Shown here: positions 2,979-19,572 of the stretch, one piece after another
How positions within the stretch are numbered: the first letter of the stretch is position 1
How the letters are laid out: each line of letters begins with the position of its first letter
Origin: Malassezia furfur
Taxonomy: Eukaryota
Assembly (NCBI GenBank): GCA_052055015.1
Contig: JBQJIT010000009.1
DNA: 20,000 nt
Direction: 5' to 3' (one strand)
The notes under the pieces: generated by a model
The model's input: the letters and a program-made list of their open reading frames with translations, nothing else
Database searches by the model: none
Told to the model about the DNA's origin: nothing
Made by a program: the position numbers and the translations under genes

Positions 2979-3332
2979 TGCGAGTAGCGAATGAATGTAG
3001 ATTGAGTAGGTGAGAGCACGCGATCAACGCTGTACCGAAGACACTCGGGGTGTGCGGTTACCAGAACCGCGGGAGAGAAAGGGAGAGGTGACGGAGCGGG
3101 GTTGCACCCCATCGCCAATATAAGCACTTCGCTCGTGGGCCATCAATGGACCCACAGATCTCGGTACGCAGCGTAGATGCTCGTCGGCGCGCCGCGCCGC
3201 GTGGGTGGTGGAATTCGCGCAGGACCTGCATCACGTGGATCGGCGAATGCGGGGCACGACCCTGGGTGAACATCTACCAATTCTACAACGCGCACGACCG
3301 GCGTATCGGCGTACGCGCATCGAGATCCTACC

Positions 3333-4862
3333 TCATCGCCACTGGTGCTGCTTCGCGCCAATGGCAACCGCAAGGTCCTCGAGCTCACGTCCCCATGCAT
3401 GAGCTACCCCGGCCTGCCGGCGGCTCACCTGCTCCGCACGCGGCGCAAGCTCGAGCGTCCCCTCCACCTGGTCAATCCGACCGCGAATGCGCCCGTCGAG
3501 GATAAGCATCAGCACGAGCGACGTCACCCGTTCCTCTGCGAGCTGCAGCATGTCGGCCAATGCCGAGAGCCGGATGGAGCCATAGGGCCGCACAGCACCG
3601 ATTAGGTATTGGATCCTCAGCTCCGTGAGCACGTCTGCAATGAACTCGCGGATAAAGTCGTCGTCGGTGAGCGTTGCATGGTTGTCTGGGTGAGCATGGC
3701 ACGTACCGCGCACAATGCGCTCGGCACCCTGTACATCACGCCGCTGGTAGGCGTCGACAAGCGAGGTCATCGCGACAATGTTGGGGTCGTCGCGGTATGG
3801 CTTAGTCTCCTGCGAGTCAAATGGGTTGACGTCGCTACCCATAAGCATGTGCGCTAGCACAAGATATTTGAGAACTTGGATGCGCAGCTGGCTTCCCGCT
3901 TCATCGTAGTTGCGGAACGCCTGGAAAAAGTCGACCTGCGCGGCCTCCCAGTTTTCTGCGTGAGCGTGCGACGTACTTTCGGCCATATGCATCTTACCGC
4001 CGCTCTCGCGAATCATGCCCATGGTGCGGGGGTGCGGAATCGCATTCTTGATTCGCATCGCTGCATCGTAGGTGTCCTGCATCAGTGTGTTGACCCACCT
4101 TGACTTTCTTCAGGTTGCCCATCTCGCGGTACATTTGGATCTCGAGCGCGAGCAGCTCCAGCATGAGCGTGCCCTTGGACTGTCCGTCGCCAGCATCGGC
4201 CGCGAACTCGTTTGCGCGCAGCTCACGCAGCGTCTCGGTAAGCCGCGCCCACTCTTTGCGCGACAGCCACAGCCGCGCAAGTTTCAGCTTAATCTTCATG
4301 TTGAGCCGGTCGCTCTGCGACGCGGCCAGCACCTCGTCTGTCGCTTGGTAGAATGCCTCGAGGATCGCGAGGGACGCATTCGACGCTGAGACGTAGTCGA
4401 GGATCGAGTTGACCGATTTTTCGCTGCATCAGTTTCCCACGTACGTGTAGTTTCGCGTTACGGCTGACTTGGTATACTTGAGCAGTGCGCGATAGGTCCG
4501 CAGCGCCTCTTCGTGCTGTCCCCGATGGAAATGGATCTTGGTCTGCTGCTTGAGCGCCTTGAATCCCCTGTGTGAGCGCATCCACATACCACTCGGTCAT
4601 ATCTGTCTCGGCATCCAAGATGTCCTGAAGCTCGCGGATCGCCGCGTCGGGCTGCTCAGCCTTGATGGCTGCGTCAGTGCGATGCATAGGTACCCTTCGC
4701 GTTGTAGTATTTGTTCTCGATATATGCGTCCGCATCTTGCTCATCGTCGTCGTCCTCATACTCGAAGTCATAGTCCTGCATAAGTCGGTTGCGCGCACCT
4801 CTTCGAGCGCATCGTCCATCATAAACTGCGTCAGTGGCGCGGCCTACCTCCTCGTCCGACAT
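3333..4862 (-). CDS. CSN2: COP9 signalosome subunit 2 (PCI domain), 450 aa after splicing 8 introns
   Basis: Spliced product reads MSDEE-FMMDDALEE-DYDFEYEDDD...IENKYYNAK...EWGFKALKQ...VTRNYTEKSVNSILDY...PHPRTMGMIRESGGKMHM...DFFQAFRNYDEAGS...NPFDSQETKPY...ILDGRIRGRIDQV. Introns are 4826-4847, 4776-4798, 4669-4693, 4568-4589, 4424-4444, 4077-4098, 3956-3976 and 3686-3706. Spliced length is 1353 nt (in frame). Confidence 0.95.
4424..4444 (-). other. Representative 21-nt spliceosomal intron (GTACGTGGGAAACTGATGCAG) in CSN2
   Basis: It contains an in-frame TGA, so it must be removed. Removal restores the conserved RNY(T)EKSVNSILDY. Confidence 0.9.
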
Positions 4863-4975
4863 CCTGGCGGCGCACGGTCGTTGCGGAGCTCGCCGATCGA
4901 TCGGGGAAATATACACGTGCTGGACTCCCGGCCGTCGCGCAGCCGAACCCCGTTTCCGATCGTCGATCGCTCGCC

Positions 4976-5692
4976 ATGGTCCTGGTACGTAGGCAGCTGC
5001 ATTGTGCCTTCTTACACGCAGGAAAAGCTGTCCATCTACCCCCAGCCCGATCAACCGGTGACCGTCGTCGAGACCTCGAACGAGCTCGAGCGCCAGGTCG
5101 GTGGCATCCGCGAAGCCGTCCAGCGAGGCACGCGCGGGGCCTTGCAGTCGGTGCGCTCGGGCGTCGACCGCGTGGTGAACACGGAGCACAAGGTCGAGAG
5201 TAGGTTCACGAGGCACTAACGCAGACCGCTTTGACCAGCTCGTCGCCAAAGACGAGTCGCTCACGCCCAACGGCCTGTACGTCGGCGTTGCGACGCTCGC
5301 CAGCGTTGTGTTCACGCGGTACCGTACGTGTTGCTACTCACCCAGGCTCGTTCCCGATTCGCTGGTTCACGCCGCCGCTTGTGCTTGCGCTGTCCTTCAA
5401 GTACTTCCTGCCGCACACCTTTGACAACACGGCGGAATACTACGATGCGGTGGAGCACAAGAACTTCCCGCAGTTCAGCGAGAAGCGCCAGAATGTTTGG
5501 TCGACGATCAAGCGCACCTACTTCACTGGTGTGTCGCACCTTGAGCGCACGGGCGAGCAGGCCAAGGATGCCCTCGCGTCGGGCGTTCACAGCATGGAAA
5601 ACAGCACCGGCCTCAAGCTCGGCTCGGTGCTGCCGACGGGCACGGTGCCGGAGTCGGCGCCGAAACTGGCCGACAAGACCAAGCTCGTGTAA
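4976..5692 (+). CDS. MICOS complex subunit MIC26/MIC27 (apolipoprotein O family), 210 aa, 3 introns
   Basis: Reads MVL-EKLSIYP...VETSNELERQV...EHKVE-NRFDQLVAKDESLTPNGLYVGVATLASVVFTRYRSFPIRWFTPP...YFLPHT, matching the ApoO/MIC26 pattern. Introns are 4985-5021 (37 nt), 5200-5224 and 5324-5345. Spliced length is 633 nt. Confidence 0.85.
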
Positions 5693-5713
5693 TAGGGTAT
5701 AGCCAACTCGATC

Positions 5714-6630
5714 CTATCGCTTTGCATGGCCAGGCGCCAAGAGTTGTCCTGCGAGACGCCGCCCAGCCGCGCTCAGTTGCGGCGCGCGCTGCGCTCGCGA
5801 AAACGCCGGCGCCGTTCGCACAGGCTTGGGTCGCTTTGCGCGCGCCTCATGAAAGTCGCGGCGCACAACTGGTGTCGACAGGCTAGGGTCCGTGGACGAC
5901 TCGCCGACCAGCGGCAGGTCGTCGCTCCACCCAATGCGCTCGCGCAGATCGGCGTCGCGCGCCGCGCGTTCTAGGCGCGCTTTCTTGTCCGCACGGAACG
6001 CACGGCGCATCTCAGCATTGCGCGCGTACGGGTCTGCCCACCGCCCATAATTGTGTTCCTCAAGCTCCTCGATGCGCGCCTGCCGCTTCGTACCGTCCTG
6101 CTGCTGTGTCTTTTTGCGCTCGAGCTGCGAAAAGGCGCCGTCCTCGCTGGGCGCCTCGGGGTCTGTGTGAGGAGGCATGCGTACCGTGAATCGGGAATCC
6201 GCCATGCTCCTCGGGATCCCAATCCTGGAGCTGCTCGCGCGCGCCTGACTCGATCACGTAGCGCGTGTGCTCAGGATCCGTCTGGATCGCAAAGTAGCTC
6301 TTGCACGACGGACACTTGCACCGGAACAGCCAGATAGGCGTCGAGTAGTACTGGCCTACCTGTCTTTTCTCAGCATTAAAGCGCACACCCTGTCCAATCC
6401 GCTCGTTGCACGAGAGGCTGGCATCAGCCTTGCACATACCACCAGATGTGAAAGGGCAGCTCAACTGTGTCATTGAAGTACACGTACATCGCACCACTTT
6501 GCCAAACTTGGACGGCCCGTCTCTCCGAGTCGGCCGTGGCTTGAATGGTTTGTCACGATCGTCCTCGTCCCAGGGGCGGTACCGCCCCACTATGCATCAG
6601 CGACGCACACCTACTATTAAACCCCTGCAT
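5714..6630 (-). CDS. Saf4/Yju2 (CWC16/CCDC130-type) splicing factor, 274 aa, 4 introns
   Basis: Spliced start MQGFNMGRY, then VRFELPFHIWCLSCNERIGQGVRFNAEKRQVGQYYSTPIWLFRCKCPSC...IQTDP (two CxxC), then DPYARNAEMRRAFR. Introns are 6590-6614, 6465-6487, 6418-6439 and 6163-6184. Spliced length is 825 nt. Confidence 0.92.
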
Positions 6631-6664
6631 GGTGGACGTATGACCTCCACACGTGCACGGGCAA

Positions 6665-7849
6665 CTACGGCAGGGAGAGAGCACGGAATTCCCAATACTT
6701 GGTGCGTGCAGGGTCGGCGTAGCGTAGCCGCGCAAGGATCTGGGTAAGCAAATTACGTACTGCGCGGCCCTCGTTGCGGAGCGCTTCATCCTGGCTCGCC
6801 TGGTACTGCTCGATCGCGGCGTCCAGAAGCCACTCCAGCGCATAGGGTGGCGTCCGACCAGCCTCGTCAATTTCAGGGTGCTCTGCGGAGTGCACATGGT
6901 CTCGGTCCGGTACAAAGGCAGCCACCTGATCCGCAATATCGGTCATCGGCTTCCGCGGCTCAAGCGCTGTACACAGCCTAGGTGAGCCCTCCACGTACCC
7001 CCGCAAGTAGTTCCACGGGCTCGCATTGTTGGGCGCCATAGCAATTTTCTCAAGCGCGTACGTGATTTCGGCATCGCGCGTCGTTTGCAAAGACGGACTG
7101 ATCCGCCGGCCTTCTGCGCCACGCCCAAAAATGCAGAACCAGCGGTGGTTGTACGCGCTATTGTTCCGAATGTCCTCTGCAAGCATCTCGTCCACAAACG
7201 CAAGCTCACCGTCCCATAGTTGAGGAAAAGCACCCGCGCCTGGCGCACGCAGTTTTTCGTCATGCTCATGCAGTCCGCCGAAGTGGGCCAGTACCCATTG
7301 CCGGTAGGCCCAGGTATGGTAATTCTTGGCGTCCAGGCTCAAATTCGCGCGTGTAAAGTCGAGTTCACGGCTTGGATCACCCAGCACGGACACAATGATG
7401 CGGCGGTGTTGCCTGTGTTAAAATAGAGCTTACCAGATCTGGTAGTTCTTCATGTTGTGCTTCGCAAACTCATCCAAGAAATCGAGTTCCTGGCGCAGGC
7501 GGTCATGGTTACCGTCGGCCTCGCTTAGCTGCAGCAGCACCTCAGCACGGTACTGCCAGATGCTGTAGTTGGCGGGGTTCAGGTACAAAAGATGAGCTGT
7601 GAGCTGCAGCGCGCGTTCCGAGGCTTCGACACGCCCAGGATGCATCTGCTTGAGTGCACGAAACAGGTCCATGGCCTGGGAATCTGCGTAAGCCTGAGAC
7701 GTACACTCGGGGTCGTACGGAATGGGGCACAGCGGATACGGTCCATCGTCCTGCGACACTGGCACAACGTCGGCCCACGTAGAAGACGTGGGATCGAATC
7801 GCATGGTGGACGGATCCTGCTCCGCGTCCACCTCGCGAATGGCAACCAT
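6665..7849 (-). CDS. RAM2: Protein farnesyltransferase/geranylgeranyltransferase-I alpha subunit, ~366 aa, 4 introns (all 21 nt)
   Basis: Contains WADVVPVSQDDGPYPLCPIPY and PPTA repeats NPANYSIWQYR, KNYQIWQHRR, DAKNYHTWAYRQW, DIRNNSAYNHRWF and APNNASPWNYLRG; ends DPARTKYWEFR. Introns are 7684-7704, 7413-7433, 6978-6998 and 6740-6760. Start codon is uncertain (7849 or 7804). Confidence 0.95.
7413..7433 (-). other. Representative 21-nt spliceosomal intron (GTAAGCTCTATTTTAACACAG) in RAM2
   Basis: It carries an in-frame TAA inside the PPTA repeat. Removal restores KNYQIWQHRR. Confidence 0.9.
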
Positions 7850-7936
7850 GCGAATGTGGAGAACAAAGGAACATGACAAAGCAACTATGGGCCTATCACC
7901 CCGCAGAAACAGAAACGAACATTGCGCCATCCCAAA

Positions 7937-9163
7937 CTAGGTATGCAGCGGCTCAGCAGCGACGTACTGGAACTCACTGTCCGACGCCACTTGTTGCGCT
8001 TCGCTGGCCCTCGCATCGATGGGCTTCGTGAGGTAATCCTCTTCGAAGAGCGTGCACCAGTCGTACGAGCCTAGCCGGCGCTGCAGCAGATCACAGACGC
8101 GCGCCTTGGTCCAACCATCAAACTCGATCTGCAAGGCCAAGGGATGGCTCGGTTCGGCCTCTGATAGCAACGCATCCACATTGAGATGGGTCGGCCACAG
8201 GTGGTGCTCGCGTAAAAGCCATTCGAGACGCACAATGCGTCGTTTGTGGTCACAGTAGGCTTCATGGATCAGGCATAGACGCTCGCGCACTTCCGGGTCA
8301 AGGATGCGCCCGGATACGTCGACCGCGCGCCATGCCGGCCCGTTCGGCCAGGGAGGTATGTCTGGCTCCAGGGGCACATACAGTGTCGTCACAACGCGGC
8401 GGCGCATTTGCTTGCTTGGTGCGACGGGGAACAGGCGCTCGAGGTCGTACTGCGACACGGTAAGCGTGTTCTTCGTTTCGTCCTCGTATGCGGCTGCAGT
8501 CGCCGCCGACTTTTCGAGCGCCTTGGCCTGCGCCACATCGGCGCGCTTCACAGGCGTATACAGCGATCCATCCAGTTCGATGCCAAAGCGATGCACATTG
8601 AGCGAGTGCGCAAATGCCGACCATGCGCGCTGCGCCGTCCACTTGTGCGACCATTGATCTTCCACCTCGCAGCCCACGGCGCGGAGTGCCAAAGGCGCGT
8701 TGGTGACCAGCGTTTCAAACAGGCGGGCGCCCTGAGGGCCCGAGCTAAACGAGCGTGCAGATTGAAGACCTGCGCCATGGCGCATCGAGGGCACATACGC
8801 AGGCCCATGCGGCAGCCTCGCACGCATCGCGGCAAAGTTGCCGAGCGGCGTCGCACGGCTCGACAGGCCAAAGTGCTCCGGCACGAAGCCAGAACGTGGC
8901 GAAGCGGGTCGCATCCCATTTTTCACGCTCGAGGGAGAGAAGACACGCAAAGCCCCATCCCAGAACGGGGCAAGTTTCTCGAGGGTCAGACGCGCATAGC
9001 GACCAAGGCGGTGGCGGCGGCCGCGCCGCGCCGCCATGCCGGCGTTGCGAGACGAGAAGCGCAAGGCAGAGGATCGTGGTGCACGTAGTGCTCCAGCTGG
9101 GTCTAAATTGCGACCCAGCCGGAGCATGGCTCGGAAGAGGTCCTGTTTAGGAGGACCTGCCAT
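7937..9163 (-). CDS. Uncharacterised fungal protein (~408 aa), possibly Spg5 (stationary phase protein 5)-like
   Basis: Long intronless ORF with first ATG at 9163 (MAGPPKQ); the ORF-track start at 9283 is not ATG. The segment GAGLQSARSFSSG..RLFETLVTNAPLALRA resembles my recollection of a conserved fungal motif. Family assignment is tentative. Confidence 0.55.
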   Translation of the reverse strand: MAGPPKQDLFRAMLRLGRNLDPAGALRAPRSSALRFSSRNAGMAARRGRRHRLGRYARLTLEKLAPFWDGALRVFSPSSVKNGMRPASPRSGFVPEHFGLSSRATPLGNFAAMRARLPHGPAYVPSMRHGAGLQSARSFSSGPQGARLFETLVTNAPLALRAVGCEVEDQWSHKWTAQRAWSAFAHSLNVHRFGIELDGSLYTPVKRADVAQAKALEKSAATAAAYEDETKNTLTVSQYDLERLFPVAPSKQMRRRVVTTLYVPLEPDIPPWPNGPAWRAVDVSGRILDPEVRERLCLIHEAYCDHKRRIVRLEWLLREHHLWPTHLNVDALLSEAEPSHPLALQIEFDGWTKARVCDLLQRRLGSYDWCTLFEEDYLTKPIDARASEAQQVASDSEFQYVAAEPLHT

Positions 9164-9350
9164 GCCGAGCGTCTGCAATGCAATCAATCCGGAGGGGAAG
9201 GTGGAGCAGCGGTGGCGGCGTGCCCATGGCGCAGGGGCCACCCTGGCGCCACCGGCACGTGGCCTTGTGGGGCGGAGCGCCACCGGCGAGGGCTGTGGGG
9301 CTGCGCAGGGCGCGTACCGATGGTATCCATAGAGGTGTGCTAATTACATG

Positions 9351-10045
9351 TTACAGAAGAAGCAGAAGCGACACGCCAATGGGGGCCACAATAAAGAGAA
9401 GGACGTGAATGGAGGGGCGAATGGCCGCACTCAGGAATAGAATGGGGAAGGTGTTGGCGTACTTACCCTCGCCGCTCGCGGAGCTGAGCGGGACAAAGCC
9501 CAGCATGCGGTCACGGTCATTGGAGAAAAGAGCTTCGCAGTCAGGAATCTTGCATGCCTCCTCTGCCGACACCTTGGCCTGGATGCGGTACCAGCATGTC
9601 GTGTCCGTCGCCGCAGTGCAGCACGTGTTCACGATGCTATCGGTCCAGCCGGCCTGCTGGTTCTGTGACAGGGCGTTATCCATCGTGCAGGTACCCTGCG
9701 GCGTGTCCGCCGAGAGAGTCGCCGTCGCACCGGCCGAGGCAACACCCGAATGCTCGAGTTGGTTCGACGCCGTGGGCGTGGCCACGTCCGAGGACGTCGC
9801 ATTGCTGCTCGCAGAGCTGTTTGAGCTTGGTGCACTTTTGGCGGCAGACGACGTTGCATTCGACGCGGTCGCGTTGTTTTCGGCGCGTGCAACGACCGGC
9901 GATGCAAACACAGGCGCAGCAGCTATGGGCGCGTTCAGGTCATTGTCACTGCGTCAGCACGTCAGACCTACCCCACGGCAAGCTGGGCCTGAGCCACAGA
10001 TACGAGCGCAAGAACCGCGAGTAGCAGGGCAACAAAGGCCTTCAT
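9351..10045 (-). CDS. Small secreted, probably GPI-anchored protein (223 aa) with an S/T/N-rich stalk and a 6-Cys domain
   Basis: Removing a 23-nt intron (9949-9971, GTAGGT...CTGACGCAG) joins the signal peptide MKAFVALLLAVLALVSVAQA to the 9351-9911 ORF. It has N-x-S/T sites, six Cys, and a hydrophobic C-terminus (SAAIRPSIHVLLFIVAPIGVSLLLLL). Confidence 0.85.
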
Positions 10046-10180
10046 CGACGTTTCGCTCCAAGTGCCGAGAGCGTCGTGGGGGCGACCGAGTCGACTCCCC
10101 AAAAAGCCACGTGCACAAGTCGTTTACCCCAGCCTATGCAATGAAAAGTGGGGGATGCGTGACCGGCGCGGTCAGACGGC

Positions 10181-11482
10181 CTACGGATGGTCGGCGAGCG
10201 TCTTGCGCATGCCCTGCAACAGATCGGCTTTGAGGTCCTCGACCTCCTCTATCCCGGTCGAGACACGGATCAGGCTCGGACTCTCGTCGGGCGTCGACAT
10301 GATGCGCTGCTCCATAAGCGACTCGACACCGCCCAACGAGGTGGCAGGCGTGAAGTAGGCGAGGTTGTGCGGCAGGTACTTGGCCCATACCTCCTTTTGA
10401 AGATAAATACCAAAGGTTGGCGAGGCACCGCCGGGCATCTGCTCCTTCGGGTCGAATGTCCGGTCTTCCAACCTGCTGTGCTCGTTCAAGTCCGAGTCGG
10501 CGTCGTGCCGCGGCTGCAATGACGAGTGGTAGACGCGTTGGACAAACTTGCCGTCCGTTAGCTCTGCAGGGACACCCTCTGGCGGTGTCTGGCCTTTGGT
10601 GAGCGAGAAGAGCCACTGCACAAGCTCGGTCGCGTTCTTGGACTGCTGGCGCACACGCAGCGACATGGTGCGCAGCGATCGCAGCAGCAGGTAGGACTCG
10701 AGCGAGCCCAACACGTACCCGTACACGGTGCGATCATGCCACATGGACTTAAACGCCTTGTAGTCCTTGGTTGCAACGACACCGGCAAGCACGTCCGAGT
10801 GGCCGCCAAAGTACTTGGTGCCTGAGTGCATCACAAAGTCGGCGCCCTGGTGGAAGGGGTTCTGCAGCGGTGGCGGGGCAAACGTGCTGTCCACGCCAAG
10901 ATAGCCATTGACCTCGTGAGCGCGCTTGGCATAGTGCGCAATGTCACGCGCCTCGCCGGTCGGATTGAGCGGCGACTCGACCCAGACAAGCAAACCGCCC
11001 TGGCGTAGCCCCGACTCGGAGTCGACCTTGCCCTCGATCGTCGGATACGGTTCGTCCAGGTCGATAAACTTGACATTGCGGCCGCGAGCATATACCTCTG
11101 CGACATTGTGTACACCAAAGTAGCCGCGGCGAATCGCAATCACGCTTGGGTTCACGGCGGTGATCACGGCGAGCGCCGCAGAGAGGCCCGAACTGAAGGT
11201 GAGTGCATGGCCCTCAAGAATGCTGCTCAACACTTCTTCAGTACGTAGGTTGGTATCCTGCGTATAGCGGCTGTACACGTTTACCGATGGCTTCTCCGGG
11301 GTGTCGAACGCACCAGCAATGCCCTTGCCGAGCACCGAGTCGGGATGCGGCTGGCGGAAGGTCGTGGAGAGTGACATCATGGGCGCGACCGAGTGCGCCG
11401 GGTCTTTGGAGTGATCCGGCTCATCGGCGTGCAGCAGACGAGTTTGCAGACTGGGCGCAGGAAGCTGGTTCGGGGCAGACAT
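10181..11482 (-). CDS. Cys/Met metabolism PLP-dependent enzyme (cystathionine gamma-synthase/lyase family), 433 aa
   Basis: Intronless; likely start MSAPNQLP at 11482. Motifs include YSRY, FSSGLSA, WVESPLNP, VDSTFAPP, the PLP-lysine motif HSGTKYFGGHSD, ATSLGGVESL and IRVSTGIE. Confidence 0.93.
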   Translation of the reverse strand: MSAPNQLPAPSLQTRLLHADEPDHSKDPAHSVAPMMSLSTTFRQPHPDSVLGKGIAGAFDTPEKPSVNVYSRYTQDTNLRTEEVLSSILEGHALTFSSGLSAALAVITAVNPSVIAIRRGYFGVHNVAEVYARGRNVKFIDLDEPYPTIEGKVDSESGLRQGGLLVWVESPLNPTGEARDIAHYAKRAHEVNGYLGVDSTFAPPPLQNPFHQGADFVMHSGTKYFGGHSDVLAGVVATKDYKAFKSMWHDRTVYGYVLGSLESYLLLRSLRTMSLRVRQQSKNATELVQWLFSLTKGQTPPEGVPAELTDGKFVQRVYHSSLQPRHDADSDLNEHSRLEDRTFDPKEQMPGGASPTFGIYLQKEVWAKYLPHNLAYFTPATSLGGVESLMEQRIMSTPDESPSLIRVSTGIEEVEDLKADLLQGMRKTLADHP

Positions 11483-11609
11483 GGCCGATTGCGTTACAAT
11501 CCCTGGGCAAGTAGGACAGTCCGAGCGCGACGTGCATGACTCGGAATTAGTGTTGCTGACTGTATTTCTTGTCCTCCACCGCGCCGGCGTTGGGCAGCGT
11601 GCACGTCCC

Positions 11610-12271
11610 ATGCAGATCCCCATTCTCCCGGAGCCGTTCCAGAGTGTAGGTGATGCGCTGATGCAGATCATTGCGTACTTTACGTCGACACCCATAAACG
11701 CCGGTCTCACCGGCCTGTTGTTGCTGTCGCTCTTTTGGCTGTTCTACGTGCCGCATCCGCTCGGCGAAGACTTTACGCCGCCCGTGTCGCAGGCACGTCA
11801 GCGGCTCGATACGAGCTCGGCGTACACCGCGCTGCCGCTCGACCACCCCAAATCGATCGAGTTTGTCTCGTACACTCCCAAGACCCTCGCGCTTTTTGAT
11901 GGAACGGGCAGTGAGCAGTCGCCGGACGGCAGCAAGATTCTCTTGGCGATCAACGGCAAGGTGTTTGACGTGTCGTCCGGCCGCAACTTTTATGGACCCG
12001 GAGGTCCTTACGGCAACTTTGCAGGCCGTGATGCGTCTCGCGGGATGGCCAAGCAGTCGTTCGATCTATGTATGTCACATGCTGACCCAGCCATGTTGAC
12101 GCCCCTCGACCAGCCGATTGACACGCTCGAGGACCTCACGGACAGCGAGCGGTACGTTCATGTGCTAACGATAGGAAAAACATGTTTGACTGGGAGTCGC
12201 ATTTCGCCGGAAAGTATGGCATTGTGGGCGAGCTGGTTAACGAGGGCCAGACCTCGCGCAGGCCACAGTAG
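11610..12271 (+). CDS. DAP1: Membrane-associated steroid/heme-binding cytochrome b5-like protein (Dap1/MAPR), 205 aa, 2 introns
   Basis: N-terminal TM helix, then ILLAINGKVFDVSSGRNFYGPGGPYGNFAGRDASRGMAKQSF. Introns are 12070-12090 and 12152-12174; removing the second restores ERKNMFDWESHFAGKYGIVGELV. TAG is at 12269-12271. Confidence 0.92.
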
Positions 12272-12308
12272 TCCGCCGCCGGCGCCGCCGATCGAACGAG
12301 TTTTGTAG

Positions 12309-13748
12309 ATGTGGAGGCTTGTGTGGCGTGGCGACATGCTTCGGTGCGGCGCCGCGAGCGCCGCGCGCGCGCGCCGCACTGCCCCGGCGCCTGCGTGCGC
12401 GCGCGGCTCACAGAGTGCCTCGGAGAAGCTCTTCCGCGATGCCGAGGCGGAGGAGGATGCCGAGGAGCGTGCGCGCGCGAAGATTCGCCGTGCGCAGCGC
12501 GCGTCAGAGCCGGTGTGGACGGGCGACGAGCGCATTGAGGACACGGTATTGCGCATGCTCGAGCACAAATACAAACCCCTGCGGCGTGGTGAAGATGGGC
12601 GTGCAGCGGAAAAAAAGCGGCTGGAGCGGGTGCCGCGACCCACCGTCCGGCCGCTCACGGCGCAGGACGAGGTAGGGGCGAATGGCGTCGTGATCCGACG
12701 TACCGGCGACAACCCCTGGGACCTGTTTTACTCGGCACAGCCGAAAAAAGAATCGCGCGTGTATCGCGGGCGTACCGATGTGGACCTGAAGCCGCCGGGG
12801 TCCGAGATGAAGCAGCAGCTCAATAAGATGGGCGTGTCGGTGCAGCACCTGCCGCGCGACGATCCCAAAGCCATGGGCAAGATCCGCGACACGCTGCGTA
12901 GCTCAGCGGTACGCGACCGAATCAAAACGGCGGTCGATAAGTCGATTCGGTACCCTGACCGCAAGAAACCCGCACCACCGGCCGACGCCGAGGAGGAAAG
13001 CGAGTCTACACCGCTGCTTGGTGTCGTGAGCACGGCCAAAGGCATGGCGGGCATCGCTGAGATGAAGATCGAGGAGGCACTGCGCAAGGGCACGTTCCAG
13101 AACAACTCGTTACGTGGCAAACCCATCCCATACGACTACAACGAGGGCAATGCACACCTGGGCCGCGAAGAATTCCTGCTGAACCGCATGGTGCAGCGGC
13201 AGAATGCCGCGCCGCCTTTCGTCGAGATGAACATGGACATGAAGAGCGAGGAGCGTGCGCTGCGGCAGCGCATCCAAGCAGCATGGCTCTGCCGCGCGCT
13301 CATTCGCCTCGAGCAGAGCGGCGCATGGCGGCGCATGGAGCCGGTCGCGGTCGCCTGGGAGGAGGACGACGCAAAGCCGAGCGAACTGCCGGCCTACACC
13401 CTGGATGTGACGAGCGACGCTCAGCGCGCGACCGTCGCGTGGGCACGCAGCTTCCGTGACACGCAGTGGGTACAGGAGCAGGCCGCGTACCATGCGGCGG
13501 CCGTCCAACAGCTCAACCAGGTCATCCGCCGCTACAACCACATTGCGCCCTACTTTGCGCGCAGATTACTCTATACCAAAGAAAGTTTTGTTGAGGACGC
13601 GCTCGACCGTGCGTTTCCGCTGCTCGTCGAGGCCGCCAGCGCGCGCCTCCGAGGCATGCGCGCGTCGGGTCCGGCCGCAGCATCTGCGCCCACGGCCGAG
13701 CGTCCACGCACGTCGTGGTGGGCATGGATCCGCGGGGGAGCCACATAG
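12309..13748 (+). CDS. DUF1992 / DNAJC28 conserved-domain protein, likely mitochondrial
   Basis: Intronless 479-aa ORF (alternative start 12336) with an Arg/Ala-rich presequence-like N-terminus. Motifs include WTGDERIEDTVLRML, AEMKIEEALRKGTFQNNSLRGKP, EEFLLNRMVQRQNAAPPFVE and LNQVIRRYNHIAP. Confidence 0.85.
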   Translation: MWRLVWRGDMLRCGAASAARARRTAPAPACARGSQSASEKLFRDAEAEEDAEERARAKIRRAQRASEPVWTGDERIEDTVLRMLEHKYKPLRRGEDGRAAEKKRLERVPRPTVRPLTAQDEVGANGVVIRRTGDNPWDLFYSAQPKKESRVYRGRTDVDLKPPGSEMKQQLNKMGVSVQHLPRDDPKAMGKIRDTLRSSAVRDRIKTAVDKSIRYPDRKKPAPPADAEEESESTPLLGVVSTAKGMAGIAEMKIEEALRKGTFQNNSLRGKPIPYDYNEGNAHLGREEFLLNRMVQRQNAAPPFVEMNMDMKSEERALRQRIQAAWLCRALIRLEQSGAWRRMEPVAVAWEEDDAKPSELPAYTLDVTSDAQRATVAWARSFRDTQWVQEQAAYHAAAVQQLNQVIRRYNHIAPYFARRLLYTKESFVEDALDRAFPLLVEAASARLRGMRASGPAAASAPTAERPRTSWWAWIRGGAT

Positions 13749-14666
13749 TTACATTACAATACACTGCGTGAGTCGCTGCACGTACCTCTTGCTCGTCGCC
13801 CGTAGCACTGCGCGCCATGTCACGCGTAAAGTTGGCGCTGCCGCCGCCGCGCGGACCGAAGAGGTTCACGACAAGCACACCGTGGTTCTTGGGATCGATG
13901 TGCGCCGCAATGTTGTACTTGCGCAGCAGATCCTCGACGGCCGGGCGGATCTTGGACACGTGGTCACGCGAGTGGATGCCTTTGCCGACAATGATGCGCA
14001 GTTCCGGCACGCCCTGCGCCTGCGCCTGCGCGACGACTTGGTCGACCTTCGCGAGCGCCTCCTTGACGTACAGGCCATGCACATCGATCGTGCCCGGCGG
14101 CGAGTCAGCGTTGTTGGCAGCATAAATCCACTCGACCGCCTGGGCGTTGAGCTGCTCCATCTGCTGCTTATGGTAATTGCCCTCGTCACTGAGCTGCTTG
14201 GCGCGCGCACGGTCGCCGTGGCTGTACGCCGACTTAGACTGGTCAAAGCACTTGGACATCTTGTCGCCCTCAGATCGTGCGCGGTTGCGCAGCTCCTTGT
14301 ACTGCGGGTTCTGCGCATTGACGTTGTTGTCGTCGAACGCGTGGATGTCGTTCGTGCCGAGAATCGCCTGCGTGTTGGGTGCGGGGCCGCCCACGGCGCC
14401 CGTTCCGGGCCCGGCGCCGTAGGCTGGTCCGGGAGCATAGCCGCCGCCCTGCGCATAGCCGCCCTGTGCATAGCTGCCGCCTTGGCCCCAGCCGCCCTGC
14501 GCCATGCCGGCGCCCATGCCAGCGCCCATGCCAGCGCCCGCGGCCGTCTGGAACTTGCGTCGTTTCAGCGCACGCAAAAGCTGTGTGAGCCCGTTATGCC
14601 TACCTTGCGCCCGATGCGCAAGAACATGCGCCGGTTGGACTTGACAAAGCGCAAAATTTCGTCCAT
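13749..14666 (-). CDS. DUF1771 + Smr domain protein (290 aa) ending in the CaaX motif CIVM
   Basis: Exon 1 is MDEILRFVKSNRRMFLRIGRK, followed by intron 14581-14603. DUF1771 (AYSHGDRARAKQLSDEG) and Smr (IDVHGLYVKEA..LRIIVGKGIHS..NHGVLVV) follow. After intron 13764-13785 comes the final exon TGT ATT GTA ATG TAA. Spliced length is 873 nt. Confidence 0.9.
13764..13785 (-). other. 22-nt terminal intron (GTACGTGCAGCGACTCACGCAG) preceding the CaaX micro-exon
   Basis: It matches the local donor and branch/acceptor consensus. Splicing yields ...DEQE-CIVM-stop. Confidence 0.85.
14436..14541 (-). repeat. Coding repeats (GAGM x3; QGGW/QGGS/YAQGG units) in the low-complexity N-terminus of the Smr protein
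   Basis: 12-bp GCGCCCATGCC(G/A) units and 15-bp GCATAGCCGCCC-like units are visible on the + strand. Confidence 0.7.
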
Positions 14667-14749
14667 CCTCGTGTCAAGCGTCGCGCAGATCAGTGGAGAA
14701 AAAAACGCGACGCGCATATGCATTCATTATATACATCCCCTCCACCTGT

Positions 14750-16914
14750 CTACGCGCCGCCGGGGCGAGGCAGCGGCCCCACCTGCACGCCGGCCGGCCG
14801 GCGCGGCTTTTGGGCCCTTTGCACGGCCTGATTGTGCCGTTTCATTGCCCGGCGCCACTTGGATTTGCCGCCGTGTCGTAGCCGCGTAAGCACGGTGCTC
14901 ACCGTGCCGAGCGACGCATTCGCCCACGGCGATTCCGTAGCGTCCTCGTCCAGTTCGCCCTTGCTACGCAACTTGTCCTCGAGCATCTGGATGGCGCGCG
15001 GGGACGCAGGCCGGCTCCGCCACTGTGCCATGCGACGCAGCCACAAAGGCGAGCGCCCCGCCGCGCTCGCCATCTTCGTCATAAAGGTGTCGCAGCCCCG
15101 CAGCGCATGCTCCCAATCCTCGGAACGGAGCACCTGCTTTTTCTGCCAGTAAGGCGACGTAGCACCCTGGTCCACCATCCAGTCAGGGTTGCGAGGGTAG
15201 TACGTCCCGACGTATTCATGACCATCACGCTGCAGCTTGAGGTAGCTTTGGTCCCAGCCGGCCAGTACAAACGTCTCATTTCCACAGTCGACCCACGCGT
15301 TGGGCGACGCCTTTTGCAGCTGGCGGCTGGGCGTGGCCTGCATGGCCGCATACAGCTCGGCAGGATTATCGTAGTCGACGAACGCAAACGTTGCCGACTC
15401 CCATGGCGAATGGGAAGCGCGCCGCGGGGCAACAGGCGTCTCCTTCTGCGCCCGCGACGCTTCTGCCCGCGCGCGAAGCGAGTCAATCGTCTCGTCTGCA
15501 TCAGCACATCACGTACCTTCGATTGGCTGCTCATCGTACAGACCAAAGAGCGTCGGAGTGCAGACCATATCATTGGCCAAATTCCCCACGAGATCGAGGA
15601 TCAGGCAGTCCTGCTTGCCCGTCTCGGGGCTCAGACGCATCCCCCGCCCAATCATTTGCGCAAACAGGTTCTGGGACTGGGTGGGTCGCGCGAGCAACAC
15701 ACAATCGATCGGTGGGACGTCGGCACCCTCGGTGAGGATCGCTGCGTCAGTCAGGACACGCACCGCAGTTGATCAGGACAGGAAAGTCGCCGCGCTGGAA
15801 TGCTTGGAGTAGCTCCTGGCGCTCGACAACGGGCACACCCGAATGGATGCCGCGTGCATCAATACCGCGCGCCTGGAACTCGTGGGTGAGAGCATGTACA
15901 TGGTCAATGTTCACCGCAAACACCAGCGTCGACCGCCGCACGCTGTGGGCGCGCTGGATCCACGTGCGTACAATCAGCTCGTTGATCGACGGCTCGTTGA
16001 TCACCTTGGCGAGCGACGCGACGTTGTAATCCGAGCCCACACGCGACACGGATGACAGGTCAAACTCGGCGTGCACGGCCGTAAAACGCAGCGGGCACAG
16101 CCTGGGTCAGGGACGTCACGTACCACTTTTCGTCCATCATCGCAAGGAAGTCCTTATGATACACGATTTCCTCATATACGGTACCGAGTGCCATGCCGTC
16201 GTGTCGACTGAACGTCGCCGAGAAGCCAATGATGGGTACAGCGTGCGGCTTTTTTGCCTCGGCGTCCGGGAGGGCCACACCGCCGTGAAAGTGCGCCAGG
16301 ACAGCGCGGTAAGATGCCGACGTGGAATGGTGTGCCTCGTCCACAATTACGCACTTGAACCGTGCCGGGTCGTACTTCTCAAGCCGGTTGGGTCGACAGA
16401 TGGATTGCACGGTCGCGACGGTGACATCGGCAAATCCTGACGCCTTGTGTTTCGTGCCCTGCTCTAGCTCTAAGCTGAGATGCGGCAGGATGCGCCGCAC
16501 AGTCGCGGCCGCCTGCTCCGCCAAGGCCACGGCGTTGACGAGGATAAGCACCTGGCCGGCACAATTCGGCGGAGGCGGCATCCGGTGCAGGAGCTCGGTG
16601 AACATGGTCGTCTTGCCGCTGCCCGTAGGTGAGGAGACGCCAATGCGGCTCACCCCGCGGCGCAGTGCAGCCAGGCATGTCTCGACGCACTCGGCTTGGT
16701 ACGGCCGGAGCACCACCGACGAAGCCGGTGCGGGCGGTGGAGCGGCGGCCGCAGTGTCAGCCAAGCCTGCAGTGCGACGCGCACCCACGTAGCTTGTAGA
16801 CCATAGAGTACGTATGCATGGACGTAAGGGGCGCACGTAGGCGCCTATGTGCGCCACACCGAGTCGCGCGCCTCGGCACCCCCCCACGACCAAGGCGCGT
16901 GCGGCGTGCTGCAT
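14750..16914 (-). CDS. IRC3: Irc3-like mitochondrial superfamily-2 (DExH) helicase, 699 aa, 3 introns
   Basis: Motifs are LRPYQ, PTGSGKT, DEAHH, GFSAT, TLVFAVNIDH, NCAILTEGADVP (across a splice) and QMIGRGMRLSPETGKQDCLILD; C-terminal LTRLRHGGK. Introns are 16102-16123, 15742-15763 and 15496-15516. Spliced length is 2100 nt. Confidence 0.88.
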
Positions 16915-16952
16915 ACCCACACCTCCACCCAGACCCGCGACGTGCCTCCTTG

Positions 16953-18055
16953 ATGACGACCCGCCCCGCGACTCATGCAGGGACCTGGTACTCGGCAGAT
17001 CGTACGCTCCCCCTCACTCACACAGCTGCGCAACTCGACAGGATGCTGTCGGACTGGCTCCAAACCGCTACGTCGGCGTCGGCTTCCGATGTGGCCACCG
17101 ACGCACAGACCCCCCGCATTGCGCAGCACCCGTTGGTGAAGGGATGCAAAGCAGTGATCGGCCCGTACGTGGCAAACGCTGACGCAGGCATGCCGGCTAC
17201 CGCTTTTCTGGTCCCTCGGCGGCGTGGGCATATGGCTGCATTGATCCCGAGACGATGTACGTCGCACGCCACTGACCCAGCCACCGTGTCATTGTGCTCG
17301 GTCCCTCGCACCACGCGTACTTGGATGGGTGCGCGCTCAGCCCGTACAAGAAGCTCGCGACGCCGCTCGGCGACCTGCGTGTGGACAAAGAGGTGAACGA
17401 TACGCTGCGCACCTCGAAGCTCTTTCGCCTGATGTCCGATGAGGTGGACGAGGACGAACACAGCATGGAGCTGCACTACCCCTACATCCGCAAGGTGTTT
17501 GGGGACCGCGACATTTCCGTGGTACCGATCCTCGTAGGCCACCTGTCAGCGGTCAAGGCGGCGCAGTTTGCCGAAGTGCTTGCGCCGCACGTCGCTGACC
17601 CAGCGACGCTGGTGGTGGTCTCGACCGACTTTTGTCACTGGGGCGAGCGCTTCCGCTACACGTACTACCAAGGCGAGGACGACGCGACGCCTGTGCTGCT
17701 CTCGTCGCGCACGTCGCGTGAGCAGTACGCCAAGCGCCCCATCCACGCGTCGATCGCGGCGTTGGACGCCGCGGCCATGACCGCCATCTCGTATAGCCCG
17801 ACGCCGGATGCGCCCGTGGTGCACACAAGTGCCGCGGATGCACGCAAGGCATTTAGCGCGTACCTGTCGCGCACGGGCAACACCATCTGCGGCCGCAACC
17901 CGCTGATGCTCCTGCTGGCGACGCTCGCGCACCTTGAGGCACAGCAGCAGGGCTCGTTTGTGTGCAAGTTCACCCACTATGCGCAGAGCGGCGCGGTGCA
18001 AGTGCCGAGCGACAGCTCTGTGTCGTATGCGGCAGGCTATGTACAGCAGGTGTAA
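16953..18055 (+). CDS. MEMO1: MEMO1 / Mho1 family protein, 343 aa, 3 introns
   Basis: Motifs are RPATHAGTWY, IGPHAGYRFSG (across a splice), LGPSHH, DEDEHSMELHYPY, STDFCHWGERF, NTICGRNP and YAQS..DSSVSYA. Introns are 17002-17025, 17165-17187 and 17257-17280. Confidence 0.95.
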
Positions 18056-19572
18056 TTAGTTTTTCTTGTCCATCCACGACGGGCGACTGTCGTCGCGCAT
18101 CGCATACACCTCGTCGAGGCGCTCGCGCAGCGCCTGCACCGCCTCCTTGCCCGCAACCAGGTCACCGTCGCGCATGGTGTGCACGTTGGAGATGTCGCGT
18201 CCCTCGCGCTCGTCGCGCTCGACGCTCTCCACGAGGCGCTCCGAGAAGATCGCCTCGCCCATGAGCGCAATGTGCTGCCGGTTCTCTGCGACGCCCTCGT
18301 ACAGCGGGCGCACGTTGGGCGCGTCCCAGTCAATCGCACCGAGCCCCGCGGCAGTTTCAGGCGCATCCGGCGCGGCGTGCGCCTCTTCCCACGCGAGGCA
18401 CGGCGCCCAGTCCGCCTGGTCGATGAGCTCCTCGGCGCGGTTCTCGAAGATGCTCTGCATCTGCGACTGCTGCGCCATGAGGTCGACGATGCGCGCCTCC
18501 GACTTTTCTGCGGCGTCCTCGCCGGCGTTCGGGTCAAGCACCGACTTGGCGACGGGCACCTGCGGGTCGAAGTCGAGCATGTCGAGATCGAGCCACGCCG
18601 GCGCGCCCTTGGCGACCCAGTTGGGCTGCTCGTCGCAGTACAGTGCATAGACGAGCAAATTTGGGTCCCACGCGCCTACCGCGACGGTCGCGAGGCGGTT
18701 CGTGTCGCCGTGTGCGCTGTAGCGGAAGCGGACGAGGTGGATCGGCAGCAGAATCGGGTAGCACGCAAGCATGTCGACGTCCAACGAGTCGCGCTCCATG
18801 CGCACGACGGCGCGCGCATCCTGGTCGGCGTGCTCATTGATGTTCGCCACCTGGATCTCGACGCCGGGCAGCAGCTTGAAGCGCCGGCGAATGTGGAGCG
18901 GCGGCCCCTGGGCAAGAAGGTCGACCATGAGCGTGCGCAGGTCGGCGTGCTGCAGCATCGCGGGCAGGCTGCGTGGAGACACGTTGAATGGCAGCACGCT
19001 GATCTTCCCGTCGATGCCCACGTCGGGGTGCAGGTGCCGTGGGCGCTCAAAGGCCGCATAGGGCATCGGCGCATCGGCGCCCTTGATGAGCGGCATCGGC
19101 ACCTGCTCCATGGCGGGCGTGCGCAGCGGCGGCGGGCGCAGCGGCAGCGTGTCGAGTGGCTTGTATGCGTTACCCGGGAACGCCGAGTTGGTCGAGACGA
19201 CTGTGTCAGTAGGCGCACCTACACGTTGCCGTGGCCTGGCCGGTATCGCCGCGGCACCGCATCTTCCACACGCCGTCGACGGTCTGGGTGAGCAGTACGA
19301 CGTACCCAGATCGGGTAGTACAGGGCCTGTGCCGACTCGAAGCGCATCACGTCCTCCTCCGACTCGGTCATCCACCCGAGCCCGAGCGCCTGCGACACCG
19401 CGAAGGCAATGCCGCCCCAGCGCCCCTTGATCGTGGGCAGAAGCTGCTCAAGCGCGCCGAGGCGTGCACGATGCACGGCGTCTTTGGTGCCGAGCTGGAA
19501 ATCAAGTGCGCTCACGCGGCTCGCGCGCGCCGCACGCGCCGACGTGCTCAACGCACGCACCGGCACAAACAT
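18056..19572 (-). CDS. Uncharacterised protein (490 aa), probable mitochondrial presequence, 2 introns
   Basis: Starts MFVPVRALSTSARAARASRVS. Introns 19284-19305 and 19201-19222 join three frames into one 1473-nt CDS (ALYYPIW-TVDGVWKMR..ATF-VSTNSAFPG...ACYPILLPIHLVRF). I do not recognise the family. Confidence 0.75.

Follow-up and report, generated by a model that had tools for sequence, protein, structure and literature searches.

Introns of 21 to 25 nucleotides with a putative branch site fused to the acceptor in a 20-kb stretch of Malassezia furfur DNA

Genes and introns of the window

The window, a stretch of 20,000 nucleotides of Malassezia furfur DNA (contig JBQJIT010000009.1), has a G+C content (GC) of about 63% and carries tightly packed genes on both strands. 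Thirty-four short GT-AG introns have been modelled in it, spread over 10 of its 14 complete genes. The subject of this analysis is the architecture of these introns. In most of them a putative branch A is situated at position -6, counted from the intron end with the final G as -1, and this spacing looks like a lower limit onto which the introns have been compacted.

The gene models were curated by hand. An automatic chaining of exons, based on codon log-odds and allowing any GT-AG pair, was dropped since antisense frames are open in GC-rich DNA and the program joined neighbouring genes through spurious long introns. With the 34 segments removed, all 10 intron-bearing genes have a complete frame from ATG to stop. 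The intron-less genes are three more complete ATG-to-stop genes and the gene of a Cys/Met PLP enzyme, in which 433 residues are open from the ATG. The local intron density, estimated from the gene-model lengths, is about 2 per kb of coding sequence. Single exons match the Pfam families PCI (in the CSN2-like gene), ApoO, Saf4_Yju2, prenyltransferase alpha repeats and Cys/Met PLP enzyme, as well as cytochrome b5-like, DJC28, DUF1771 with Smr, ResIII/DEAD helicase and Memo.

Homology searches place the window proteins close to those of M. brasiliensis, at 92-97% identity. The last MEMO1 exon is 92% identical to M. brasiliensis MBRA1_002816, the next matches being those of other Ustilaginomycotina at about 50%. 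A CSN2 exon is 97% identical to M. brasiliensis MBRA1_002825, 83% identical to its M. japonica counterpart and 72% identical to each of those of M. yamatoensis, M. vespertilionis and M. psittaci. Two metagenome loci from a more distant Malassezia, L002 and L003 (GC 54%), served for comparison. Their synteny with the window is complete across 13 genes, with protein identities of 31-61% over the aligned stretches. Comparison with L002 allowed 32 of the 34 introns to be judged. The "absent" results of L003 at 6740-6760 and 12070-12090 were not used, the local alignments being poor. The introns are listed below with their coordinates in the window, strand, length, position of the branch-like A and state in the comparison loci.

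3686-3706, minus: CSN2-like gene, intron 8; 21 nucleotides (nt), A at -6; absent from L002/L003, alignment ungapped
3956-3976, minus: CSN2-like, intron 7; 21 nt, A at -6; multiple of 3 without internal stop; absent from L002/L003, ungapped, 12/16 identical
4077-4098, minus: CSN2-like, intron 6; 22 nt, A at -6; absent from L002/L003, junction alignment ungapped
4424-4444, minus: CSN2-like, intron 5; 21 nt, A at -6; in-frame stop; 25-nt intron with A at -8 in L002/L003
4568-4589, minus: CSN2-like, intron 4; 22 nt, A at -6; 25-nt intron with A at -7 in L002/L003
4669-4693, minus: CSN2-like, intron 3; 25 nt, A at -6; internal stop codon; 24-nt intron at the same site in L002/L003
4776-4798, minus: CSN2-like, intron 2; 23 nt, A at -6; absent from L002/L003, where the coding sequence reads through with a 3-residue acidic indel
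4826-4847, minus: CSN2-like, intron 1; 22 nt, A at -6; intron at the same site in L002
4985-5021, plus: ApoO/MICOS-like gene, intron 1; 37 nt, A at -8; 30-nt intron at the same site in L002
5200-5224, plus: ApoO-like, intron 2; 25 nt, A at -6; 37-nt intron with A at -11 in L002/L003
5324-5345, plus: ApoO-like, intron 3; 22 nt, A at -6; absent from L002/L003, ungapped, 12/16 identical
6163-6184, minus: Saf4/YJU2B-like gene, intron 4; 22 nt, A at -6; not found in L002, alignment weak
6418-6439, minus: Saf4/YJU2B-like, intron 3; 22 nt, A at -7; 27-nt intron with A at -8 in L002/L003
6465-6487, minus: Saf4/YJU2B-like, intron 2; 23 nt, ATGAC, A at -6; 26-nt intron in L002
6590-6614, minus: Saf4/YJU2B-like, intron 1; 25 nt, A at -8, TAG acceptor; L002 acceptor at the same exon start (by eye)
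6740-6760, minus: prenyltransferase alpha gene, intron 4; 21 nt, A at -6; 26-nt intron in L002
6978-6998, minus: prenyltransferase alpha, intron 3; 21 nt, A at -6, TAG acceptor; 24-nt intron with A at -7 in L002/L003
7413-7433, minus: prenyltransferase alpha, intron 2; 21 nt, TTAAC, A at -6; internal stop; 27-nt intron in L002/L003
7684-7704, minus: prenyltransferase alpha, intron 1; 21 nt, A at -6; 31-nt intron with A at -9 in L002/L003
9949-9971, minus: secreted Ser/Thr-rich protein gene, its intron; 23 nt, A at -6; 32-nt intron with A at -10 in L002
11646-11666, plus: cytochrome b5/Dap1-like gene, intron 1; 21 nt, A at -6; coding read-through ...YWQSII... in L002 (by eye)
12070-12090, plus: cytochrome b5-like, intron 2; 21 nt, A at -6; 26-nt intron with A at -8 in L002
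12152-12174, plus: cytochrome b5-like, intron 3; 23 nt, A at -7, TAG acceptor; 27-nt intron in L002
13764-13785, minus: Smr/DUF1771 gene, intron 2; 22 nt, A at -6; precedes a 15-nt last exon (CIVM and stop)
14581-14603, minus: Smr/DUF1771, intron 1; 23 nt, A at -6; modelled from the exon-2 frame, which has no upstream ATG, and not from comparison
15496-15516, minus: helicase gene, intron 4; 21 nt, A at -6; internal stop; not found in L002/L003, alignment weak with one gap
15742-15763, minus: helicase, intron 3; 22 nt, A at -6, tied by a second motif at -10; absent from L002/L003, ungapped, 14/16 identical
16102-16123, minus: helicase, intron 2; 22 nt, A at -6; absent from L002/L003, ungapped, 12/16 identical
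16767-16788, minus: helicase, intron 1, doubtful; 22 nt, no branch motif, only 2 of 6 U2 pairs
17002-17025, plus: MEMO1 gene, intron 1; 24 nt, A at -6; 24-nt intron with A at -7 in L002/L003
17165-17187, plus: MEMO1, intron 2; 23 nt, A at -6; gap-free against eight full-length fungal MEMO1 proteins; absent from L002/L003
17257-17280, plus: MEMO1, intron 3; 24 nt, A at -6; internal stop; absent from L002/L003
19201-19222, minus: gene O, intron 2; 22 nt, A at -6; absent from L002/L003, ungapped
19284-19305, minus: gene O, intron 1; 22 nt, A at -6; absent from L002/L003, ungapped

All 34 segments begin with GT and end with AG, with G at +5 in 33 and T at +6 in 28. The length is not a multiple of 3 in 22 of them, and retention would shift the frame. 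Among the 12 that are multiples of 3, four contain an in-frame stop and the other eight rest on comparison. The Pfam domains run on across the exons. The MEMO1 model is gap-free at all three of its junctions against eight full-length homologues from Basidiomycota and Mucoromycota, and across the eight CSN2 junctions the model and M. brasiliensis MBRA1_002825 are colinear. Removal of CSN2 introns 1 and 2 restores a conserved exon, FMMDDAL. The exons flanking intron 4 of the Saf4/YJU2B-like gene match positions 37-107 and 122-225 of the Saf4_Yju2 profile in the spliced frames, and the intron of the Ser/Thr-rich gene sits between the signal-peptide exon and the body of the protein.

This was further supported by the comparison loci. 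Seventeen window introns have a counterpart at the same site in L002 (16 by script or printed sequence, one by eye). Fifteen others are missing from L002, where the coding sequence is continuous (13 by script, two by eye), and 10 of the 13 script-called sites have no gap within 8 residues on either side. Very short introns are known in the genus: 5350 introns with a mean of 30 bp, 99% of them supported by RNA-seq, are reported for M. sympodialis (PMC5389616). As judged from frames and homology, the modelled segments are ordinary U2-type GT-AG spliceosomal introns. The segment at 16767-16788 is doubtful; an in-frame ATG further upstream would render it superfluous.

Splice signals and the putative branch point

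Ten of the introns are 21 nt long, 12 are 22 nt, six are 23 nt, two are 24 nt, three are 25 nt and one is 37 nt. An NTNAY motif is found near the 3' end of 33 introns; the remaining one has none. In 29 of the 34 the motif is separated by 2 nt from the AG, placing the A at -6 within NTNAY-N-YAG. Twenty-seven of these have the strict form CTNAY-N-YAG, one has TTAAC and one ATGAC. The branch-like A is at -7 in two introns (6418-6439 and 12152-12174) and at -8 in another two (4985-5021 and 6590-6614). The acceptor is CAG in 31 introns and TAG in three. Over all 34, the 3' end has a purine at -10 in 26, C at -9 in 27, T at -8 in 29, A at -6 in 30, a pyrimidine at -5 in 32 (C in 26), a purine at -4 in 25 and a pyrimidine at -3 in every intron, followed by the AG. 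T never occurs at -4.

The motif CTNAYNYAG occurs 31 times on the two strands together, compared with a mean of 5.53 (standard deviation 2.41) in 200 dinucleotide shuffles, none of which reached 31. Twenty-seven of the occurrences are 3' ends of modelled introns and the remaining four are at chance level. The composite pattern GTNNGY-N4-12-YTNAYNYAG has 28 matches, of which 27 are modelled introns, against a mean of 0.97 and a maximum of 5 in 200 shuffles. A relaxed pattern gave nine extra matches. One of them, at 19495-19515 (minus strand) in gene O, was rejected as an intron, the residues VSALDFQ, which its removal would delete, being conserved as coding sequence in L002; four share a modelled acceptor with another upstream GT, and four lie elsewhere. 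A motif match at 17566-17603 (plus strand), whose length is not a multiple of 3, falls within an uninterrupted exon of MEMO1.

Sixteen of the 34 introns have GTACGT as their donor. Between the donor hexamer and the branch motif there are 249 spacer bases in total (76 G, 71 C, 55 A and 47 T), 47% of which are pyrimidines. No polypyrimidine tract is present on either side of the branch site in the 34 introns: there is no room on the 3' side and the 5' spacer is unbiased. The introns as a whole have a GC of 57%. What stands out is the combination of a high local density, a strong branch consensus and a length floor at 21 nt, together with the contrast to a sister lineage whose introns are fewer, longer and looser.

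These figures agree with an earlier note on this DNA, which had counted the branch A at -6 in 28 of 32 introns and at -7 or -8 in the others. The present models give 29 of 34, with two at -7, two at -8 and one without a motif. Its 16 GTACGT donors among 32 introns recur here among 34, and its statement that a polypyrimidine tract is lacking is borne out by the spacer composition. The lariat loop of 16 nt that it calculated for a 21-nt intron is arithmetically right, the A being base 16. The interval in which it had placed the feature, 3686 to 19305, runs from the outer edge of the first intron to that of the last, both introns being on the minus strand.

The assignment of the branch point was assessed by pairing each intron with the universal U2 hexamer GUAGUA, which was not taken from this genome and has been described as conserved (PMC9505925). 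The best register bulges the A at -6 uniquely in 27 of the 34 introns and in a tie with an A at -10 in two more. In the introns with the A at -7 or -8 the best pairing is found at -7 and -8, respectively. In the best register 33 introns form 4-6 of the six possible pairs, and the preferences for a purine at -10 and for C or T at -5 are those predicted from U2 pairing. In L002 and L003 the motif shifts relative to the AG and so forms an element distinct from the acceptor. The A at -6 is a good candidate for the real branch point.

A floor, a ruler or a common origin

The distribution of distances is one-sided. The putative branch A is situated at -6 in 29 introns, at -7 in two and at -8 in two, and nowhere closer to the acceptor. 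Counted from the 5' end it is base 16 in 11 introns, base 17 in 11, base 18 in six, base 19 in two, base 20 in two and base 30 in one, again with none closer. No intron shorter than 21 nt is found among the 34. The acceptor is the first AG past the branch A in all 33 introns that have the motif. At 16 orthologous sites the A is at -6 in 13 of the window introns and in none of the L002 introns, which are 24-37 nt long and have it at -7 (six), -8 (four), -9 (four), -10 and -11 (one each). The spacing therefore drifts in evolution and is not fixed across the genus.

The intron of L002 and L003 that is orthologous to 4669-4693 (at about 17040-17065 in L002) ends in ...CTGACAGTAG. There the alignment, and not the frame alone, favours the distal TAG over an AG one base past the branch motif, as though an AG that puts the A at -4 were too close for use.

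A minimum-distance floor fits the spacing at least as well as a measuring device does, and the pattern as a whole looks like compaction onto a steric floor with choice of the first AG. The window introns are probably U2-type introns of the furfur/brasiliensis group of Malassezia that have been compacted to the apparent physical minimum of their spliceosome. The donor, a 6-nt GTAYGT-like sequence, would pair with U1 and then with U6, and would be followed by a spacer of 4-8 nt without composition bias. The branch site, RCTNA*Y, would pair with the U2 hexamer with the marked A bulged, and the YAG would follow two bases on. In a 21-nt intron only about 4 bases would be free between the donor read by U1 and U6 and the branch site paired with U2. 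Early recognition would appear to work without a polypyrimidine tract or a footprint for U2AF65.

The acceptor would be the first AG past the branch A, at the shortest distance that the second catalytic step allows. After branching, the AG would fold back so that A(-2) meets the branch A and G(-1) meets G(+1). The yeast P complex has these two pairs, and the bases -3 to -5 are ordered in it (bioRxiv 10.1101/212811). The base at -5 would serve both as the last pair of the branch helix and as part of the 3' splice-site segment, leaving a two-base turn, which is plausibly the smallest possible. Slu7 is described as dispensable when the branch point and the 3' splice site are less than 9 nt apart (bioRxiv 10.1101/212811), and exon ligation in these introns would run in that short-distance regime. 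The limits at -6 and at 21 nt would then be steric, and deletion-biased shrinkage against them would have pushed both distances down in the lineage of the window.

Several points weigh against this interpretation. Seven nucleotides around the branch site and the 3' splice site are ordered in the yeast P complex, and its authors suggest that about two more are needed to join them (bioRxiv 10.1101/212811). A 5-nt distance accordingly requires a tighter path than that in yeast, and a tighter path may itself mean a changed machine. The tightness of the spacing (29 of 34) and the lack of T at -4 would also be compatible with joint recognition of branch and AG by one factor. In two introns the second motif, with the A at -10, pairs equally well, and the modelled intron at 16767-16788 is entirely without a branch motif. 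The sample consists of the 34 introns of one 20-kb window, with introns and branch A deduced from sequence, reading frames and homology.

A true molecular ruler is unlikely. It would read the branch site and the YAG as one 9-nt element of fixed spacing by means of a modified or reduced early complex, with SF1, U2AF and U1 altered or lost, since all of them cannot fit on 21 nt. The sharp peak at -6, the avoidance of T at -4 and the frequent C at -5 (26 of 34) would be expected of such an element. So would the lack of room for a polypyrimidine tract and the fact that in the 21-nt introns roughly 4 bases stay unpaired between the donor hexamer and the segment paired with U2, and the yeast P-complex geometry suggests that about 9 nt would be comfortable. 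The four introns at -7 and -8, however, share genes with introns at -6, the distances spread in one direction, the acceptor is always the first AG, and the orthologous introns of L002 and L003 are at -7 to -11. Furthermore, both U2AF1 and U2AF2 are kept in Stentor, which has the same -6 spacing, and in myxozoans with 22-bp introns, indicating that tiny introns with such spacing do not require their loss.

The fixed ruler of the earlier note is not supported; the one-sided distances, the use of the first AG in 33 of 33 introns and the L002 spacings of -7 to -11 speak against it. The convergence with fused branch-acceptor motifs elsewhere that the note had proposed is real and closer than it stated, Yarrowia and Stentor also having the A at -6. 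Its proposal is therefore partly supported: convergence and a fused branch-acceptor motif hold, and neither a ruler nor reduced machinery is needed.

It is improbable that the uniformity reflects a common origin, that is, a recent burst of near-identical minimal introns, spread by copy-and-paste or reverse splicing, in which the -6 spacing was inherited and not selected. Such a burst would account for the 15 of 32 judged introns that are missing from the syntenic genes of L002 and L003. The 13 script-called absent introns are all at -6 with a mean length of 22.1 nt, compared with 13 of the 16 shared introns and a mean of 23.2 nt, but the difference is not significant (Fisher p = 0.23). Of the shared, old introns, 13 of 16 are at -6 in the window and none of their L002 orthologues is, which shows that remodelling acted on existing introns. 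The spacers have a pairwise identity of 0.312 against 0.260 when shuffled, with one pair at or above 80% where 0.23 is expected. An introner-like family was rejected, there being no likeness beyond the splice signals. An origin by tandem duplication was also rejected: the introns do not resemble their flanking exons, with no case at p <= 0.05. L002 and L003 have fewer introns, situated mostly in the 5' part of genes, and the 5' bias of those retained in L002 fits loss in that lineage. The 15 introns found only in the window may have been either gained in its lineage or lost in that of L002 and L003. Published counts also differ between species, M. sympodialis having 1.2 introns per gene and M. 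globosa 0.92.

That another A serves as the branch point, with CTNAY-N-YAG being an extended acceptor signal, is very improbable: the equally good register at -10 in two introns and a branch-to-end distance shorter than the ordered RNA described for the yeast P complex would allow it, whereas in 27 of 34 introns no other A has comparable U2 pairing, many 21-nt introns have no other A past the donor except that of the AG, the motif equals the general branch consensus WCTRAY (PMC2483917), and in the relatives it moves independently of the AG.

Related systems and significance

The closest likeness in spacing is found in another fungus, Yarrowia lipolytica, where Irimia and Roy (2008) described the ending ACTAAC-AC-AG, with the branch motif anchored 2 nt from the AG and the A at -6 (PMC2483917). 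The species with anchored branch sites described there have no polypyrimidine tract and prefer C at -5 and a purine at -4 (PMC2483917), and the window shares all of these features with Y. lipolytica. The introns of that ascomycete are long (median 204 nt) and few (719 listed; PMC2483917), in contrast to those of the window, which are 21-25 nt long, occur at about 2 per kb of coding sequence and have a consensus, CTNAY, that is looser at one position. The same paper draws an association between such anchoring and intron-poor genomes (PMC2483917). With 34 introns in 14 complete genes the window does not follow this association locally, and an anchored site at such a density is one reason for its interest.

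Trichomonas vaginalis (type B introns) and Giardia have tiny introns in which branch site and 3' motif are fused, with an extended donor and no polypyrimidine tract, as in the window (PMC12316389; PMC2483917). Their branch site is anchored 4 nt from the AG, by the sequence ACAC, which places the A at about -8 (PMC2483917), unlike that of the window. The type B introns of T. vaginalis are 23-25 nt long, and only 24 such introns were found in its genome; the parasite has a reduced spliceosome (PMC12316389). Ten of the 34 window introns are 21 nt long, below the 23 nt that has been called one of the shortest lengths known (PMC12316389).

In the ciliate Stentor coeruleus the putative branch A is base 10 of 15-nt introns or base 11 of 16-nt introns, which is also -6; these tiny introns number in the thousands, and U2AF1 and U2AF2 are retained (PMC9505925). 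The Stentor introns lack a strong branch consensus, are AU-rich and have a donor-to-branch distance of 9 nt (PMC9505925), whereas those of the window have a strong consensus, a GC of 57% and a donor-to-branch floor of 15 nt, with the A at base 16. Myxozoans with 22-bp introns likewise keep both U2AF subunits (PMC13644364). Malassezia is not named in the list of lineages with introns below 30 bp in that paper; in this window the modal length is below 30 nt, 33 of the 34 introns being 21-25 nt.

Within the genus, M. sympodialis and M. globosa have very short introns confirmed by RNA-seq (PMC5389616; PMC4634964; PMC7426719). What these papers report on introns is limited to counts and mean sizes: PMC5389616 does not contain the word "branch", nor PMC4634964 the word "splice". 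In PMC3560662 "branch" refers only to glucans and PAML models. No account of the branch sites or the 3' architecture of Malassezia introns turned up in a literature search whose coverage excluded subscription journals and supplements. The short-distance introns of Saccharomyces cerevisiae are mechanistically similar, in that the 3' splice site is chosen after branching, the AG pairs with the branch A and G(+1), and Slu7 is dispensable when the distance is short (bioRxiv 10.1101/212811). The threshold described there is less than 9 nt, whereas in the window 5 nt is the rule. The -6 spacing being known already from Yarrowia and Stentor, the window seems to add one more case to an extreme that was described before.

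The occurrence of the same -6 position in an ascomycete yeast, a ciliate and a basidiomycete yeast points to a shared lower limit for the folding back of the 3' splice site onto the branch A. A further extension is tentative and somewhat unlikely. The whole intron population, perhaps about ten thousand if the window is typical, might lie on a hard floor of the spliceosome, the branch A being 15 nt away from the donor G and 5 nt away from the intron end. The intron number would have stayed high or even risen in this lineage, given the 15 of 32 judged introns that are missing in the other Malassezia clade. If this were true, there would be no footprint for SF1, U2AF65 and U2AF35 together and hardly room for the U1 and U2 small nuclear ribonucleoproteins at the same time, and both early assembly and the geometry of the second step would differ from those in the solved yeast and human structures. 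A transformable yeast would then offer a natural model of the minimal spliceosome substrate, possibly including the de novo gain of minimal introns. Genetic tools for Malassezia have been described (PMC7426719; PMC5654937).

Introns of 21-25 nt also defeat gene predictors, and a species-specific model (21-25 nt, GTAYGT...CTNAY-N-YAG) would improve the annotation of these medically relevant skin yeasts. The public models of M. brasiliensis MEMO1 (P0001) and of CSN2 from M. japonica, M. vespertilionis, M. yamatoensis, M. psittaci and Malassezia sp. (P0122-P0126) have defects exactly at tiny-intron junctions. These are missing exons, an 11-residue hole or insertions of 8-9 residues, and they look like annotation errors caused by introns of 21-27 nt.

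An Rfam scan of the window, L002 and L003 gave no match at the gathering score. The gene with the Saf4_Yju2 domain was considered as the branching factor Yju2 and rejected, the gene being the YJU2B/Saf4 paralogue. Its first 40 residues look divergent from the Pfam profile, where the match begins at position 37, and it has a 25-nt micro-exon, ELPFHIW (6440-6464, minus strand), between its 23-nt and 22-nt introns. A 34-nt segment at 3262-3295 (minus strand), directly past the CSN2 stop codon, has donor, branch-like and CAG motifs and could be an intron of the 3' untranslated region or a chance match. The intron-less gene at 420-2976 (minus strand) encodes an 851-residue low-complexity protein rich in Ser, Asp and His, with no Pfam match. 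The Smr/DUF1771 protein has CIVM at its C-terminus, a CaaX-like prenylation motif that comes from the 15-nt last exon (13749-13785 with the preceding intron, minus strand). Its L002 orthologue ends in ...ECLIM and has no intron there.

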